From an uncultured Candidatus Saccharibacteria bacterium (GTDB lineage: Bacteria; Patescibacteriota; Doudnabacteria; UBA920), in assembly GCA_964650255.1 (NCBI GenBank), contig CAZYQT010000002.1:24540-86902 (forward strand): DNA of 62,363 nucleotides, read 5' to 3'. The position numbers and the translations under genes are program-made. Shown one piece after another: positions 15,991 through 36,428 of the stretch. Numbering within the stretch: position 1 is the first letter of the stretch; each line of letters starts with the position of its first letter. The notes under the pieces were generated by a model. It saw only the letters and a list, made by a program, of their open reading frames with translations. It did no database searches and was not told the DNA's origin.

Positions 15991-16140
15991 ATGGCCGCAA
16001 AAAAGAGAAAAGCTGCAAAGCGCCCAGCTAAGAAAGCTGCAAAGCGCAAGCCAGCTAAGCGTAAGGCTGCAAAGCGCCCAGCTAAGAAAGCTGCAAAGCG
16101 CCCAGCAAAACGCAAAGCCGCTAAGAAGCGCCGTCGTTAA
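15991..16140 (+). CDS. 49-aa Lys/Ala/Pro/Arg-rich basic protein (histone H1 / AlgP-like repeats); absent from the ORF track
   Basis: ATG 15991 sits 10 nt after AGGAG, with TAA at 16138-16140. Product MAAKKRKAAKRPAKKAAKRKPAKRKAAKRPAKKAAKRPAKRKAAKKRRR. A strong terminator follows. The 79-aa minus-strand ORF listed here is its antisense shadow. Confidence 0.6.
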   Translation: MAAKKRKAAKRPAKKAAKRKPAKRKAAKRPAKKAAKRPAKRKAAKKRRR

Positions 16141-16609: not shown

Positions 16610-16668
16610 CTTCAAGTATCAATTGATATAAATGACGCGGGGTAGAGCAATTGGCAGCTCGCAAGGCT

Positions 16669-17318
16669 CAATCTCGAGGTAAGACATTTCTATGATTACC
16701 AAGCAAAAAGGCGATATAGCAGAGCAAGCCGCAATTCTTCGGTTATTAGAATACGGTTGGGGAGTCTCAAAACCAATAGGTGACAGACTTTCTTACGATC
16801 TAATAGCTGACGTAAACGGCAAACTAATCAAGCTTCAAGTCAAATCAGCTTGGTTTAATTCTCATGATCAAAACTTTTGTATTGATGTAAGGAGAACCAA
16901 AACCAATCGCCGAAATATGATTCGAAGTTTGTATGCAAAAACAGATTTTGATTTTGCACTTATATATCTTCCAGAGATCAGCATATTTTATGTGATTCCT
17001 GTCGAGGCCTTTGTAAACTTTGGTAGCACGCTTTCTTTAGTGGAAGCTGATAAACGTCAGCGAAAACCAAAATCAGCAGTGTATCGAGAAAATTTTGATC
17101 TTATCTCACTATGGGCTGCGTCAAAGGTAACTTTGACGTGAACCCTATCAAATTCGGGGAACCCTTTAAAATGGCAATCCCGAGCCAAGCCTAATTTATT
17201 TAGGAAGGTGTAGAGACTTAATGGTAGGCATCCTAATTTGGCTTTAGCTAGATGGATGAAGAGAAAGTCCAGACCATCAAATTCGCTTAGGCGAAGCAGT
17301 GAAAACTGTAGTGGTATG
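16669..17318 (+). mobile_element. Group I intron (IC3-like core) carrying a homing-endonuclease ORF
   Basis: The core strings CAAATTCGGGGAA, ATGGCAATCCCGAGCCAAGCC and GAAGGTGTAGAGACTTAATGG closely match the Azoarcus/Anabaena tRNA intron core as I remember it. Guide sequence TATGGGCT (17110-17117) pairs with both exon ends, P2 is a GUAA hairpin at 17119-17138, and the terminal G is at 17318. Confidence 0.75.
16692..17141 (+). CDS. Intron-encoded PD-(D/E)XK homing endonuclease (I-Ssp6803I-like)
   Basis: 149 aa. KGDIAEQAAILRLLEYGWGV...SYDLIADVNGKLIKLQVKS gives the E11 / D36 / Q49-x-K51 arrangement of the small intron-associated PD-(D/E)XK nuclease family. Its size and host gene (tRNA-fMet) match the cyanobacterial precedent. 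Confidence 0.65.
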   Translation: MITKQKGDIAEQAAILRLLEYGWGVSKPIGDRLSYDLIADVNGKLIKLQVKSAWFNSHDQNFCIDVRRTKTNRRNMIRSLYAKTDFDFALIYLPEISIFYVIPVEAFVNFGSTLSLVEADKRQRKPKSAVYRENFDLISLWAASKVTLT

Positions 17319-17380
17319 CATAACCTTGAGGTTCCGGGTTCGAATCCCGGCCCCGCAACCAACCAAAGCGTCTTAAAAAT

Positions 17381-18922: not shown

Positions 18923-19870
18923 ATGACAAAAGATATTTTAGAAAAATCTCTCAGTTCGAAACGTGAATCTAAGAGTGTAGAATTCAAAGCTTCGTTTGAT
19001 GTCGACTCAAATGGTGACTGGTGTGAAATCATTAAAGATATTATTGCCATCAGTAATAGTGGTGGGGGCATAATATTGATCGGTATAAGAGATGATGGCA
19101 GACCAAGCAAGGCTAATGTAAACAAAATACTTAGTTTTGACCATGCCGAAGTTGTTACTAAAATTCACAGGTACACGAGTGTTCATTTTGAAGACTTAGA
19201 AATTATTGAGGCCAAAAAGGGATCAGAAAAGATTGCTGCGATTCTAGTTGGTGGATCCGAAGTGCCAATGGTCTTCACAAAACCAGGAACCTACGATATT
19301 GGTAACGCCAAACAAAAGACGGCTTTTTCGAAGGGTACCGTTTATTTTCGACATGGCGCAAAAAGTGAACCAGGTACTTCCGAGGATTTACGGAAATCAA
19401 TGGAAAGGCAATTGAATAACATTCGCAAGGAATGGCTCGGAGGTGTACGAAAAGTTGTTACGGCGTCGCGCAAATCAAAAGTCATAGTTGTCCCTAAAGA
19501 CGTGCAGGAATCCGAGCTCCCTAACGCCTATCCCATTAGGATAGTAGATGATCCGAGTGCTCCAGCGTATCGTAAAATAGATCCGGACAAAAGCCACCCT
19601 TATAGACAGAAGGAGCTATTGTCCGAGCTTAATAGAAGCTTGGGCGGTAAGATTAAAGTAAGCACCTACGATTTGTTGGCAGCCAGACGTTTGTATGGTC
19701 TGGAGGAAGTACCGGCCTTTTGTCATAAATCAAAATTTGGTAGCCCGCAATATAGCAGCGAGATGCTTCAATGGTTATTAAATGAGTACAAGAAGAATGA
19801 TCAGTTTTTCCTCCTCACAAAACAGAAGTACAGTGATCTAGCATCTAAAGTACGCGGAAGCAAACGATAG
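18923..19870 (+). CDS. AlbA_2 (Schlafen-type putative nucleic-acid-binding) domain protein
   Basis: The N-terminal ESKSVEFKASFD...IIKDIIAISNSGGGIILIGIRDDG matches the E-x-K ... AFAN-x-GG-x-IxGV-D-G pattern of the AlbA_2 domain. The C-terminal half is unassigned. Confidence 0.6.
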   Translation: MTKDILEKSLSSKRESKSVEFKASFDVDSNGDWCEIIKDIIAISNSGGGIILIGIRDDGRPSKANVNKILSFDHAEVVTKIHRYTSVHFEDLEIIEAKKGSEKIAAILVGGSEVPMVFTKPGTYDIGNAKQKTAFSKGTVYFRHGAKSEPGTSEDLRKSMERQLNNIRKEWLGGVRKVVTASRKSKVIVVPKDVQESELPNAYPIRIVDDPSAPAYRKIDPDKSHPYRQKELLSELNRSLGGKIKVSTYDLLAARRLYGLEEVPAFCHKSKFGSPQYSSEMLQWLLNEYKKNDQFFLLTKQKYSDLASKVRGSKR

Positions 19871-19961: not shown

Positions 19962-20690
19962 ATGCCTAAGAAATTTAAGATCCTCGGGATCAATTCCTCA
20001 CCTCGTAAGAAGAACCGCCCAGCTCAGCAAGACAGCTCAACCAGAGTTCTTTTAGAACACGCCTTAAAAAGTATCAGCCCTAAAGCTGATGTCGAAATTA
20101 TTGATCTAGTAGATTTCGAAGTTCATCCAAGTGAAGGCTGCTATAGCACCGATGAGAATCTTAACCATACACCTTGCACTCACTACGATGATGACTTTCA
20201 GAAAGTCCTTTTCGACAAGTTCATAAAGGCAGATGGTGTAATCTTTTCATCACCAACTTATTGGCTAAGTATGTCCAGCCGGCTCGCTGCTTTGTTCGAA
20301 CGTCTAACCGAAATGGACCCAATCATACACGATCCCAAAGCCCGTTTGCTTCAAGGCAAGGTAGCAGGTGCGATCGCTACTGCACACGTCGAAGGATCCG
20401 CCCAGGTGTGTTACGAAATTTTAACAAAGGCAAATTATCTTGGATTTATTATCCCACCACATGCTTTCGCATTTCATACCGCCGGACAAATGGAGTTCGT
20501 TTACAACAACAAGAAGAACTTGCGAAAGGACAGGTTAGCTTTTGATAACGCCGCAATGGTGGCGAAAAATGTACTCAAGATGTGTGAACTCGTCAGGGGT
20601 TCTAAAAATCGCTGGGAAGTGTTCAACGAAAGGACTCATCGAGCTTCGAAGAATGAGCTAAGGCACAAACAAGATAGGCATGAGAGATAA
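19962..20690 (+). CDS. Flavodoxin-fold NAD(P)H-dependent FMN reductase / iron-sulfur-flavoprotein-like protein
   Basis: KILGINSSPRKKN...ST at the N-terminus (the FMN phosphate-binding loop pattern), ADGVIFSSPTYW, and a Cys-rich insert EGCYS...PCTH. Confidence 0.65.
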   Translation: MPKKFKILGINSSPRKKNRPAQQDSSTRVLLEHALKSISPKADVEIIDLVDFEVHPSEGCYSTDENLNHTPCTHYDDDFQKVLFDKFIKADGVIFSSPTYWLSMSSRLAALFERLTEMDPIIHDPKARLLQGKVAGAIATAHVEGSAQVCYEILTKANYLGFIIPPHAFAFHTAGQMEFVYNNKKNLRKDRLAFDNAAMVAKNVLKMCELVRGSKNRWEVFNERTHRASKNELRHKQDRHER

Positions 20691-20722
20691 ACCTCTATAA
20701 AATTTTACTAGTCATATCTACT

Positions 20723-21439
20723 ATGCAAGCAACTTCCGCTCCCACCGGATTTCGGAACGTCATCGGCATCCCGATTACAGAGATCATCGACAAAAAACAT
20801 AATATTTGGATTGGCATTAGCTTTGGGAATAAGCAATTCACGATTGATAATATCCTCAAACTCACTGAGACTGCTTTGACGTTTACAAAGGATCAAGTTC
20901 TTATCTTTCTTCCGGGTCGATTGCATGCGATCAATTTACAGAGCTTTGAAGGGTTAAGTGAGGAGAGGGCTATTGAGCAGGTCAAGATTGAAGAGACAAA
21001 AAAACAAGAACAGATCGAGGATGCGTTGCAAATTTTTTCGACAGACCAACGAAGTCGTATTGTGTTAGCAACTTATGATGACGTGCTTTCACCGGAATTT
21101 GATCGTCGGCTTCAAACACTCTGTGAAGAGTTTGATCACAATAACGACTTCAAAGATGATATTCATAACGTCGTTCGTGAACTACTGGCATCACGAGGAC
21201 GAACAGTTAATGAAGAGCGACTAACCTTACTTTCAAATTTCGTTTTAGGAGAACTACCTCTATTCCTTGATGGCCTCACGATCAAAGGGGCGCCAGAACG
21301 CTTTACAGTTTTGCTTTACCCAGGGCTAGGCTTCATTGACGAGTTGGTATCTGAAATAAAGGTAGGCTCTCGATATAAGGACTTGCGACAGAAATTAGGG
21401 TCTGGACTGCTAACGGGGGTTGTTGATATATCCTTCTAA
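20723..21439 (+). CDS. Cyclodipeptide synthase (CDPS)-like, tRNA-dependent
   Basis: 238 aa, matching the AlbC size class. IWIGISFGNKQF aligns with AlbC LIGISAGNSYF, which holds the catalytic Ser. SNFVLGELPLFLDG aligns with LNYVLAEAPLFADS, which holds the catalytic Glu. VLLYPG aligns with VLCYH (Tyr202). The alignment is from memory of AlbC. Confidence 0.65.
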   Translation: MQATSAPTGFRNVIGIPITEIIDKKHNIWIGISFGNKQFTIDNILKLTETALTFTKDQVLIFLPGRLHAINLQSFEGLSEERAIEQVKIEETKKQEQIEDALQIFSTDQRSRIVLATYDDVLSPEFDRRLQTLCEEFDHNNDFKDDIHNVVRELLASRGRTVNEERLTLLSNFVLGELPLFLDGLTIKGAPERFTVLLYPGLGFIDELVSEIKVGSRYKDLRQKLGSGLLTGVVDISF

Positions 21440-21460
21440 GGGTTAAATATAGGTATTTAT

Positions 21461-21489
21461 TGACTTTAGCAGAAATATTCGCTAAAATA
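21461..21489 (+). promoter_or_regulatory. Near-consensus promoter (TTGACT-17-TAAAAT)
   Basis: TTGACT at 21461-21466, a 17-nt spacer and TAAAAT at 21484-21489. The next annotated gene is tRNA-Met, about 160 nt downstream. Confidence 0.55.
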
Positions 21490-21650
21490 AGGACTGTTAG
21501 CCCCCATCATACACTTCGACAACTAAAGGCTTATTCCAGAAATAGCGTAGTAGCTTTTGGCTCAACTGAGCCAAATTAGTTCGAGAATCGTCTCGAAACG
21601 GGCAACCAAACAATATTTTAGCGCCATATGGCGCGCGAAGTGACACACGT
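21490..21650 (+). ncRNA. Candidate structured leader or small RNA co-transcribed with tRNA-Met/tRNA-Asp
   Basis: No ORF. Three perfect hairpins are present: TTGGCTCA-ac-TGAGCCAA (21558-21575), TTCGAGA-atcg-TCTCGAA (21582-21599) and the palindrome GCGCCATATGGCGC (21621-21634). Confidence 0.3.
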
Positions 21651-21726
21651 GCCGGCGTAGCTCAGTTGGTAGAGCGAAGGACTCATAAGCCTTAGGTCAC
21701 AGGTTCAATCCCTGTCGCCGGTACCA
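21651..21726 (+). tRNA. Elongator-type tRNA with CAU anticodon (Met, or Ile2 if lysidinylated), CCA encoded
   Basis: Acceptor GCCGGCG/CGCCGGT (G1.U72), D-stem GCTC/GAGC (Y11:R24), loop CTCATAA, T-arm ACAGG-TTCAATC-CCTGT. Confidence 0.8.
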
Positions 21727-21754: not shown

Positions 21755-21831
21755 GGACTGGTAGCTCAGTTGGTTAGAGCGTCCGCCTGTCACGCGGAAG
21801 GTCGCGGGTTCGAGTCCCGTTCAGTCCGCCA
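21755..21831 (+). tRNA. tRNA-Asp (GUC), CCA encoded
   Basis: Acceptor GGACTGG/TCAGTCC, anticodon stem TCCGC/GCGGA, loop CTGTCAC, T-arm GCGGG-TTCGAGT-CCCGT. Confidence 0.85.
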
Positions 21832-23453
21832 TTAGAAAAATCCACAACATTAGCCAACCTGTCAAAGGGTTGGTTTAATGTTATTTGGGCTATTTTTGGT
21901 TCTTTTCCCGCCTTTACGACAAAGTTCGTGAACACTTTTTTCATTATCAGGTCTAAATCTGCCATATTGCGAGTTTTCCTAATAGAATTAGGCAGTTGGC
22001 TAAAAAGTTCGAGGAATACAGGATAGTCCAAAATTGCGTCCTTTTGGTTCTGTAAAGCAACCTTCATTTTATTAAGTTGGATAGTGCGCTGCTTAATATC
22101 TACCTCCTTAATGGCAAAATCCTTTTTGAAATTATCCTTAATTTCGCTATCGGTTTCGTTGAGTAAAAACTCCTTGATTTTGTTCAATTTAATACCGTCC
22201 TGACGCAGTGCCGCTTTTAGAATGTCGTATTCTTTTCGCAAAATAGCTTCTTTCTGTTTAGATACTACTTTCATTTCCTGCACATAATGGTCGTATGCTT
22301 TCCGTGAAGTAAAATCGTGGTTAGACAAAAAGTCGCAAGCCGCGTCAATTACAACCTTTGCCCTAACTGACTTGTTTTGAAAAAGACACTCGTTAGTTTC
22401 GCAGCGATAGTAGAAATACTGCCGCTTACCTTCGTTTGTCTTTTTGGAAGTCAAACCCGCAGCCATTGGCTGACCGCAGCCCTCACACAAAATCATACCG
22501 CGCATTAAATCAGCTTTTATGCTTTCGGGCTTATACTGCTTCCGCGATAATTTGAACGCTCTTGAAAATGGCTTGGTCTTGTTAATTTCAAAAAAATCGT
22601 CCACGCTGACTGCTGGCACAAAATTATAAGCTTCGGTTAGGTCTTTAATGTTATTTCCGTGCAATAGCACGCCTGCATAGGAGGGGTCTTTTAGAAAATC
22701 AGCTACGCGCTTAATATCTATCTTGTAGATAGTTTGCTTCCCGTCTTTACCTCTTTTCACAGAATACTTGTTGCTGTTGAGATATTCTACGATTGCTTCC
22801 AAAGTAGCACCCTGCTTACGCATTTGGAAGGAATTTTTAATAAGCACAAAATTATTGCCGTCAGGTCGCAAGAATTGGTTACGGTCTTTATAATAGCCGT
22901 GCTTACCCTTGTTAATGTATTTACCTTCCTCAATACTGCGTTTATTGCCACGCAAAACATTATCGCTCAACTGGTCGGAATACTGCTTGGATAACACAAA
23001 GGAGATACCGAGTAGCATTTTGCCTATGGTATTGTTTTCAAATGTAAAACTGACAAATTTGAGGTCTTTGATTATTTGCTTATCAAGCAAGTCAATCAAC
23101 TCTCCTGCGTCTTTCATATTACGCGCCAACCTATCGGGGTGCCACGCGATAATACCTTCAAACTTACCCTGCTTAAACCCTTCTACCATTGTCCTAAACT
23201 TGGGTCGGATATCAGGTTCTTTTGCGCTCTCCGCTTCGTTTATCGTTTCAATTACATTTAATCCAAAACGCTCCGCAAGTTCGTTACACTCGCTGTTTTG
23301 GTCGCCGAGCGAACGGACTTGCTTTTCTTCGCTTTCGCTGGATTTGCGAGCATAGATAACATAACGATACTGCGACTTATCAATATCGCTGTCTTTGGGT
23401 TTTAGCATACTGCTTAATATGTCTGCTAAATCTTTGGTTGTATAGTTATCCAT
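21774..23453 (-). CDS. Large serine recombinase (resolvase catalytic domain, recombinase domain and Zn-ribbon); 3' end runs 58 nt into tRNA-Asp
   Basis: YVIYARKSSESEE (catalytic Ser), DRLARN, then CEGCGQPM...YYRC for the zinc ribbon. The last 19 codons (...NGGLNGTRTRDLPRDRRTL) are the antisense of tRNA-Asp. Confidence 0.85.
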   Translation of the reverse strand: MDNYTTKDLADILSSMLKPKDSDIDKSQYRYVIYARKSSESEEKQVRSLGDQNSECNELAERFGLNVIETINEAESAKEPDIRPKFRTMVEGFKQGKFEGIIAWHPDRLARNMKDAGELIDLLDKQIIKDLKFVSFTFENNTIGKMLLGISFVLSKQYSDQLSDNVLRGNKRSIEEGKYINKGKHGYYKDRNQFLRPDGNNFVLIKNSFQMRKQGATLEAIVEYLNSNKYSVKRGKDGKQTIYKIDIKRVADFLKDPSYAGVLLHGNNIKDLTEAYNFVPAVSVDDFFEINKTKPFSRAFKLSRKQYKPESIKADLMRGMILCEGCGQPMAAGLTSKKTNEGKRQYFYYRCETNECLFQNKSVRAKVVIDAACDFLSNHDFTSRKAYDHYVQEMKVVSKQKEAILRKEYDILKAALRQDGIKLNKIKEFLLNETDSEIKDNFKKDFAIKEVDIKQRTIQLNKMKVALQNQKDAILDYPVFLELFSQLPNSIRKTRNMADLDLIMKKVFTNFVVKAGKEPKIAQITLNQPFDRLANVVDFSNGGLNGTRTRDLPRDRRTL

Positions 23454-35288: not shown

Positions 35289-36428
35289 ATGGCTCATTTA
35301 ACGATTCCTTCTGATGAGGAAAACCGCCTAAAGGCGGAGTTGGAAAAACGAACAGATAGTGAAGCCGCTCGCATAAAGCGGTATTTAAATATGGATGACC
35401 TTAGTCGTCGCGAGTCTGGACCAATCCGCGAACTGGTCAATAACATTGTTGGCCTCGACCAATTTAAAGATTTTGATATTATCACCATCCCGGAAATTGT
35501 GCCAGCAAGCGCCAGTTTTGATCTATTCAACTTTCCAGCTGATCACCCAGCGCGTTCCAAGTCCGACACCTACTATGTTGATGACGAGAACATTTTGCGC
35601 ACTCACACCACTGTAATGTGGTACTACTATTTCCAACAACCGGAAATTCGCGCGAAAATTTCTGACAACAAACCACTCGGCGTTCTATCTTATGGAAAAG
35701 TTTACCGCAAAGATGAGATCGATCGCAACCACATGAACATTTTCCATCAGATGGATGGTTTGTATTTGCATCCAACTAGCGAGCGCACAATTACGCAAGA
35801 TGACTTAAAAGAAGTGTTAGCCAATGTTGTTAAAGCTGCTTTTGGTCCAGACATTAAATACCGATTCAACGACGACAACTTCCCATACACGCATTCATCT
35901 TTGGAGATGGAAGTAGATAAAGACGGGCAGTGGGTAGAAGTACTAGGTGCAGGTTTAGTTAATCCAGAAGTGTTGAAGCGACTCGATGTCGACCCTGCTA
36001 ACTACAACGGTTGGGCCTTTGGTTTTGGTTTGGAACGTTTAGCAATTATTGGCATGGAGCTGCCAGACATTCGCTTGCTATGGAGTGAGGATCCGCGCGT
36101 TGTTAAACAACTTAAGCTAGGACAAAAATTTGAAGCTGTTAGTAAGTTTCCACCGGTTATCCGTGACATTTCCTTTATAGTTAAAAAGACTTTTGAACCA
36201 AATAACTACTTCGACCTTATCCGCGACATAGGAGGGGACTTAGTGGAAGAAGTTCAGCTTATGGATAAGTACGAAAACGCAGAGAAGTTTGGCGCCGATC
36301 GAGTGAGTTACACCTATCGTATTTTGTACAGATCACCAGAACGGACTTTGGAGGCTGCAGAAGTCGAACCCCTCCAAGACCAAGTTTACAAACAAACTGC
36401 TGAGCAGTTTGATGCTGAGTTGCGATAA
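35289..36428 (+). CDS. pheS: Phenylalanine--tRNA ligase catalytic (alpha) core fused to a C-terminal FDX-ACB anticodon-binding domain
   Basis: Class II motifs FPADHPARSKSDTYY, GKVYRKDEIDRNHMNIFHQMDG and GWAFGFGLERLAII. The C-terminus SKFPPVIRDISFIV...VSYTYRILYRSPERTL is the FDX-ACB fold normally found at the end of PheT or in mitochondrial PheRS. Confidence 0.85.
   Translation: MAHLTIPSDEENRLKAELEKRTDSEAARIKRYLNMDDLSRRESGPIRELVNNIVGLDQFKDFDIITIPEIVPASASFDLFNFPADHPARSKSDTYYVDDENILRTHTTVMWYYYFQQPEIRAKISDNKPLGVLSYGKVYRKDEIDRNHMNIFHQMDGLYLHPTSERTITQDDLKEVLANVVKAAFGPDIKYRFNDDNFPYTHSSLEMEVDKDGQWVEVLGAGLVNPEVLKRLDVDPANYNGWAFGFGLERLAIIGMELPDIRLLWSEDPRVVKQLKLGQKFEAVSKFPPVIRDISFIVKKTFEPNNYFDLIRDIGGDLVEEVQLMDKYENAEKFGADRVSYTYRILYRSPERTLEAAEVEPLQDQVYKQTAEQFDAELR

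Follow-up and report, generated by a model that had tools for sequence, protein, structure and literature searches.

What product, if any, a cyclodipeptide synthase (CDPS) gene yields in a very small bacterial genome, and whether the flavoprotein gene beside it takes part, are the questions raised by two adjacent open reading frames (ORFs) of an uncultured Candidatus Saccharibacteria bacterium. They lie in a 62,363-nucleotide (nt) stretch of contig CAZYQT010000002.1, the whole of which is referred to here as the window. An initial annotation, made from the letters alone, had described a flavoprotein followed on the same strand, after 32 nt, by a CDPS-like protein of 238 residues, and had suggested that the former could act as a redox tailoring partner of the latter. 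Both ORFs are present as described (Table 1). We report that the downstream ORF is a genuine CDPS of the XYP subfamily. The reading we favor, to which we give a probability of roughly 0.6, is that it is a functional enzyme from a branch rich in Patescibacteria, with a predicted hydrophobic first substrate, and that the flavoprotein is a chance neighbor for which a dedicated tailoring role is unlikely.

The family assignment, which the initial annotation had proposed from remembered motifs, was borne out by profile and structural comparisons. Two curated models recognized the downstream ORF above their thresholds: (i) Pfam PF16715, with 58.1 bits against a gathering score of 27 (E = 1.4e-15; profile positions 12-193 of 220), and (ii) NCBIfam TIGR04539, with 76.2 bits against a cut-off of 45. 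When all sequences of the PDB were interrogated with phmmer, the nearest solved CDPS chains were the seven entries of ParcuCDPS (E ~1e-27), followed by the CDPS of Staphylococcus haemolyticus (6EZ3), BtCDPS, AlbC and YvmC (E 1e-4 to 2e-3). An AlphaFold2 model computed with 80 homologues as input had a mean predicted local distance difference test score (pLDDT) of 96 and a predicted template modelling score (pTM) of 0.91, and displayed the class-I aminoacyl-tRNA synthetase-like Rossmann fold of solved CDPSs. Comparison of this model with the PDB by Foldseek returned CDPSs as all of the top 50 matches, the best being 7QAX and 7QB8 (query TM-score, TMq, 0.77-0.78; target TM-score, TMt, 0.83).

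Inspection of the catalytic residues supported the same assignment. The three motifs quoted initially (GISFGN, NFVLGELPLF and LLYPG) are all present in the sequence: IGISFGN carries Ser33, NFVLGELPLF carries Glu177 and LLYPG carries Tyr199-Pro200, and each of these four residues is invariant among the 80 homologues. Ser33, Glu177 and Tyr199 correspond to Ser37, Glu182 and Tyr202 of AlbC, and to S26, E171 and Y191 of ParcuCDPS, so that the proposed Ser/Glu/Tyr constellation holds. The XYP subfamily is defined by Pro following Tyr at AlbC positions 202-203, where NYH enzymes have Tyr-His (PMC7613923); the Tyr199-Pro200 pair places the window CDPS in the XYP subfamily, again as first proposed.

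The closest solved relative, ParcuCDPS, determines what can be considered new about this gene. It derives from Parcubacteria bacterium RAAC4_OD1_1, of the candidate phyla radiation (CPR) and, to judge from the hosts of the homologues of the window CDPS, of the same broad lineage. Numbered CDPS 90 by Gondry and co-workers, it belongs to the XYP subfamily and produces cyclo(His-Pro) (44%) and cyclo(His-Glu) (56%) (PMC5816076). Crystal structures of the wild type (PDB 7QB8) and of six mutants, seven in all, were published in 2022 (PMC7613923), and the enzyme has since been applied in immobilised biocatalysis. A CDPS from Parcubacteria has been characterised since 2018, and because of it the argument for novelty in the initial annotation, that no characterised CDPS was known from this kind of lineage, is wrong. 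What is new is a divergent member of a CDPS sub-clade associated with GNAT acetyltransferases, having a P1 (first-substrate) pocket predicted from its sequence to be hydrophobic.

ParcuCDPS and the window CDPS share the XYP assignment, the fold (TMq 0.77 and TMt 0.83 to 7QB8) and the catalytic Ser, Glu and Tyr-Pro. They differ in that structural alignment gives only 24-26% identity, in their placement on different branches of the family tree, and in the surroundings of the active site: in contrast to the Ser/Asp dyad and polar P1 pocket of ParcuCDPS, the window CDPS has Gly65, Phe62, Leu180 and Leu197, with Phe in place of Tyr167. Its product is expected to differ from that of ParcuCDPS. With AlbC of Streptomyces noursei and YvmC of Bacillus it shares the class-I synthetase-like Rossmann fold and the GxSxGN and ExP motifs; unlike these NYH-type archetypes, to which it is about 20% identical, it has Pro rather than His after the Tyr.

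The Ser-acyl-enzyme, ping-pong mechanism of AlbC and YvmC would be expected to apply here as well. In this scheme, which is taken over from the CDPS family as a whole, a first aminoacyl-tRNA, occupying P1, would transfer its aminoacyl group to Ser33, a second aminoacyl-tRNA would then give a dipeptidyl-enzyme, and Glu177 and Tyr199 would assist cyclisation to the diketopiperazine. Prediction of the first substrate draws on ParcuCDPS, whose His-selecting residues Tyr55, Glu174 and Tyr189 have Phe62, Leu180 and Leu197 as their aligned counterparts here; the remainder of the mapped pocket (Trp29, Gly31, Pro64 and Phe181) is also apolar. Double and triple ParcuCDPS mutants drawn from Y55V, E174L and Y189L change their preference from His to Leu or Phe (PMC7613923). 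Since the mapped P1 pocket of the window CDPS is wholly apolar, and since apolar substitutions switch ParcuCDPS in this way, its first substrate is expected to be hydrophobic, of the Leu, Phe or Met type, rather than His.

To place the enzyme among its relatives, which are designated below by L (locus) and P (protein) numbers, sequence collections were searched at several depths. An exhaustive HMMER search of 1.84 billion cluster representatives identified 222 members of the family (E <= 1e-3), among which the best match other than the query itself had 36-39% identity, and a word-indexed protein search returned nothing beyond the query itself and one 90% relative, P0002. In a scan of species-representative genomes (one per species), run with a 5-sequence alignment, seven relatives were found, all seven of them in metagenome-assembled genomes of Patescibacteria (Minisyncoccia, Paceibacterota, four Saccharibacteria and UBA3533). 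As every one of the seven belongs to this group, CDPSs are a recurrent feature of such reduced genomes and no oddity of a single one. By neighbor-joining, the window CDPS and P0002 form a long branch whose sister clade comprises L003, L005, L006, L007, L018, L019, L021-L023, P0038-41, P0043 and P0051, and ParcuCDPS is placed in the other half of the tree. A short sequence distinguishes the two halves, Pro-Gly-Arg ("PGR") in that of the window and Ala/Pro-Asp-x at the same site in the other. More distantly related CDPS genes of Patescibacteria are situated two genes downstream of the histidyl-tRNA synthetase (HisRS) gene in L010 (4161-6696; also in L024) and two genes downstream of the glutamyl-tRNA synthetase (GluRS) gene in L011 (3024-6591; also in L025); in both L011 and L025 the CDPS is broken into two reading frames.

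The upstream ORF is assigned to the flavodoxin-fold, NAD(P)H-dependent flavin mononucleotide (FMN) reductase superfamily. Pfam FMN_red (PF03358) matched it with 78.5 bits against 24 (E = 5e-22) and Flavodoxin_2 with 41 bits, and its structure model (pLDDT 87) matched flavodoxin-like reductases. Among solved structures RosB (5MJI) ranks first, both by profile (E 3e-18, covering almost the whole protein) and by Foldseek (E 5e-16, TMq 0.72, 20% identity); SsuE, ArsH, azoreductases and NQO2 follow at lower scores. RosB is the 8-demethyl-8-aminoriboflavin-5'-phosphate synthase of roseoflavin synthesis, in which FMN is its substrate and not its cofactor. The window protein has the flavodoxin-like FMN_red fold in common with RosB, but a match at about 20% identity is too distant to assign it a specific activity.

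The flavodoxin fold had thus been foreseen correctly; the "extra Cys cluster" attributed to this protein was not found. Its insert contains only two Cys, C60 and C72: in the more distant half of the family C60 gives way to Ala, Ser or Thr, and C72 varies even between close homologues. A multi-Cys pattern appears in the family alignment only in a remote group (P0034-37). Iron-sulfur flavoprotein (Isf) also combines the FMN_red fold with an insert that follows the second strand; identity with Isf was considered and rejected, as the compact four-Cys motif is missing and neither of the two Cys is conserved. Homologues with 44-82% identity were found in eight loci, including contigs of 647 kb and 788 kb that resemble whole small genomes. 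The window protein lacks a C-terminal tail of about 18 residues present in its homologues of 259-260 residues. On the 788-kb contig, an 82%-identical homologue is split into two ORFs of 102 and 145 residues (L012:2734-3482), and a SET-domain gene adjoins the flavoprotein gene both in L012 and in L002 (2376-3697).

Whether the two genes constitute a pair was addressed by their co-occurrence and by their divergence from a related contig. The flavoprotein was detected by tblastn in none of 13 other CDPS loci (L003, L005-L011, L018, L019, L021-L023), where neighboring genes include adk-map, dnaN, a class A penicillin-binding protein, peptidase S51, a glycosyltransferase, HisRS and GluRS; conversely, no CDPS was present near the flavoprotein homologues in their eight loci. 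The pair occurs only in the window, in L026, which is identical to the window, and in L004. In comparison with L004, the flavoprotein gene shows 80% DNA identity and 96% protein identity over its last 336 nt, and the CDPS gene 92% and 90%. Identity at first and second codon positions is nearly the same for the two genes (96% for the flavoprotein, 95% for the CDPS), and at third positions it is 54% in the flavoprotein gene versus 86% in the CDPS gene, a disparity from which separate histories of the two follow. The step in identity is located in the flavoprotein gene, in its last ~45 nt, at the point where the protein loses the tail of its homologues, and identity then remains high through the 78 nt of L004 that follow the CDPS gene. 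A weak promoter-like site (9/12) spans the junction at 20675-20703. The simplest reading of this pattern is a putative recombination boundary at the junction of the two genes, on which either side may be the newcomer. The CDPS gene, together with the promoter region downstream of it, may have arrived or been exchanged as a cassette abutting the 3' end of a resident flavoprotein gene; the latter, strongly constrained, would be a gene that is widespread in such small genomes, where it stands alone, and that adjoins the CDPS here by chance. The flavoprotein is probably such a resident gene and not a dedicated partner of the CDPS.

Several observations weigh against the reading we favor, some concerning the pair and others the enzyme. 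With respect to the pair, the genes share a strand and are separated by a 32-nt gap in which no terminator-like site was found, so that co-transcription is possible; their adjacency is kept in L004 though the flavoprotein gene is only 80% identical there in DNA; and the comparison with L004 (window 20344-21514) is a thin one, comprising one 1170-bp contig with 336 nt of the flavoprotein gene. The first two of these points, and the frequency of redox tailoring genes in CDPS clusters (PMC5816076), are what one would expect of a two-gene diketopiperazine operon, in which the CDPS would make the scaffold and the FMN-dependent flavoprotein would oxidise or reduce it. We regard such an operon as unlikely in view of the co-occurrence counts (0/13 and 0/8) and of the sharply different synonymous divergence of the two genes, which together leave the tailoring partnership proposed at the outset unsustained. 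The flavoprotein is, moreover, far more constrained than the CDPS and stands alone on the 647-kb and 788-kb contigs, as expected of a housekeeping gene. No link between a CDPS and an FMN reductase was found in the literature searched. In established systems AlbC is clustered with the cyclodipeptide oxidase AlbA/AlbB and YvmC with the P450 CypX. The window flavoprotein, of the FMN_red/Flavodoxin_2 type and structurally nearest to RosB and SsuE, is not an oxidase of the AlbA/AlbB type, whose fold we take to differ from FMN_red, a further count against a two-gene pathway.

With respect to the enzyme, Phe173 occupies the near-invariant site of a second conserved Tyr (Y178 of AlbC, Y167 of ParcuCDPS), which is retained in at least 90% of homologues and is likewise Phe in P0002. 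Gly65, part of an atypical Gly65-Arg66, aligns with D58 of ParcuCDPS, an Asp that hydrogen-bonds the catalytic Ser and that ParcuCDPS needs, the D58A and D58N mutants retaining <1% activity. This change is common to the whole PGR sub-clade, and we know of no member of that sub-clade that has been assayed. In addition, the P1 residues were mapped onto ParcuCDPS by sequence alignment only, and the P1/P2 pocket model is less reliable for XYP enzymes (PMC5816076). Phe173 is nevertheless compatible with activity, because the Y167F mutant of ParcuCDPS still makes product, in lower yield; mutants of the equivalent Tyr also remain active in three other XYP enzymes, according to the ParcuCDPS paper. 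By analogy, then, Phe173 would not exclude activity. The missing counterpart of Asp58 is regarded as a difference and not a disqualification.

Both substitutions could also mark the CDPS as an inactive or decaying remnant in a variable stretch rich in mobile elements: tRNA genes stand on either side of the gene, a homing endonuclease and a serine integrase are encoded close by, and the split CDPS genes of L011 and L025 offer a parallel. Such decay is disfavored by the divergence from the L004 homologue (90% protein identity), where a nonsynonymous rate (dN) of 0.045 and a synonymous rate (dS) of 0.24 give a dN/dS of 0.19, the mark of purifying selection. The full-length, intact frame, the very confident structure model and the tolerance of Tyr-to-Phe exchange just described argue in the same direction, and we consider a remnant quite improbable.

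A different interpretation of the altered active site is suggested by the genes that accompany the closest relatives. In the clade nearest to the window CDPS, a small GNAT acetyltransferase of 141-148 residues overlaps or abuts the CDPS gene. In L003, L019 and L023 a GNAT of 141-143 residues overlaps its 3' end, and in L005 and L018 the GNAT gene lies directly upstream, so that this tight coupling is represented by four independent loci (L003, L005/L018, L019 and L023) and by both gene orders. For Rickettsiella, the occurrence of a CDPS together with a GNAT-fold ligase had been remarked on in 2010 (PMC2922099). The PGR sub-clade might accordingly be functionally shifted, having a small GNAT as its normal partner and yielding, for example, an N-acylated or a linear aminoacyl or dipeptidyl product, the window copy being orphaned. 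The sister relationship to the GNAT-coupled clade, the loss of the Asp needed by ParcuCDPS and the Rickettsiella precedent would fit this proposal; the intact Ser, Glu and Tyr-Pro and the standard fold speak against it, as does the window itself, in which no homologue of the small GNAT was found. It seems to us improbable. A still bolder variant, to which we attach somewhat less credence, holds that the PGR branch consists of CPR-specific CDPSs without the Ser/Asp dyad, usually coupled to a GNAT and perhaps making a product other than a diketopiperazine, and that the window copy may have been re-wired to the flavoprotein. If true, this would constitute a pathway without a described counterpart.

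The genomic surroundings are those of a variable region within an ordinary chromosome. Downstream of the CDPS gene, where a promoter and two tRNA genes had been indicated, a promoter-like site and both tRNA genes are present (Table 1), and from there the setting can be followed in both directions. On the right flank is a mobile-element remnant, the serine integrase, whose ORF, on the opposite strand, shares 58 nt at its stop-proximal end with the 3' part of tRNA-Asp; when the window was searched for an att-like repeat of the 3' end of this tRNA, none was found. The left boundary is marked by a split initiator-like tRNA(CAT), missed by ARAGORN on the genomic sequence; once its exons are joined it folds as tRNA-Met(cat), with C1 and A72 mismatched. 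Its anticodon loop is interrupted by a group I intron (Rfam Intron_gpI, 70.7 bits), in which an ORF at 16692-17141 encodes a PD-(D/E)XK homing endonuclease (PDDEXK_5, 3e-45), an arrangement that we take to be the same as that of I-Ssp6803I in the cyanobacterial tRNA-fMet intron. Between these limits, at about 16.6-24 kb, tRNA genes and genes of mobile and defence type delimit the stretch and recur along it; it also includes a 305-residue ORF without annotation. "Variable region" is a fair description of it; "orphan island", the term used initially, is apt for the tRNA-bounded assembly of homing endonuclease, defence candidate and integrase but overstates the case, since a compositional island was rejected on finding G+C flat across the region and the same as in the flanks. 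PADLOC gave no match for the CDPS or the flavoprotein, only the Schlafen-like neighbor being matched, and PHROGs gave none for either protein that would indicate prophage origin.

Elsewhere the window carries ordinary chromosomal genes, including those for MurJ, LepA, an F-type ATP synthase operon, a CCA-adding-type enzyme, RmuC, an AddA-like helicase-nuclease, phenylalanyl-tRNA synthetase (PheRS), GyrB and ThyX. The PheRS-like protein (35289-36428, + strand) is a single chain of 379 residues with a class II core (tRNA-synt_2d) and an FDX-ACB anticodon-binding domain, presumably the architecture of the mitochondrial monomeric enzyme rather than of the bacterial alpha2-beta2 form. An ORF of 49 residues at 15991-16140 (+ strand), rich in Lys, Ala and Pro and of histone H1-like composition, contains a 54-nt tandem duplication (16003-16047 and 16057-16101).

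Table 1. Positions of the two genes under study, of features around them in the window, and of GNAT-CDPS gene pairs in related loci.
Feature	Position	Strand	Basis or remark
Initiator-like tRNA(CAT) split by group I intron	16636-17361	+	exons 16636-16670 and 17321-17361; intron 16671-17320, 650 nt
Schlafen/AlbA_2 N-terminal domain with EC042_2821-like, restriction endonuclease-like C-terminal domain	18923-19870	+	PADLOC candidate PDC-S19, 8.7e-11
Flavodoxin-fold NAD(P)H-dependent FMN-reductase superfamily protein, 242 residues	19962-20690	+	Pfam, Foldseek
Approximate left boundary of high similarity to L004	20644-20703	+	sliding-window and codon-position identity; 75-83% to ~92%
Spacer between flavoprotein and CDPS genes, 32 nt	20691-20722	+	
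Cyclodipeptide synthase (CDPS), XYP subfamily, 238 residues	20723-21439	+	profile, structure and residue evidence
Promoter-like site TTGACT-17-TAAAAT, 10/12, upstream of tRNA pair	21460-21488	+	also in L004
tRNA-Met(CAT)	21651-21726	+	
tRNA-Asp(GTC)	21755-21831	+	
Large serine recombinase / phage-type integrase	21774-23453	-	Pfam Resolvase, Recombinase, Zn_ribbon_recom; phrog_95 3.5e-51
GNAT-CDPS pairs	L003:1510-2650; L005:161-1328; L018:158-1322; L019:3971-5118; L023:204-1327		

The window CDPS overturns nothing, and the flavin tailoring step once proposed for it is without support. It adds a divergent enzyme, probably acting on a hydrophobic substrate, to the few CDPSs known from candidate-phyla bacteria. 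The PGR sub-clade to which it belongs, in which the active-site neighborhood is altered and a GNAT partner recurs, offers enzyme discovery a reasonable target and also bears on the question of which small molecules episymbiotic bacteria make.

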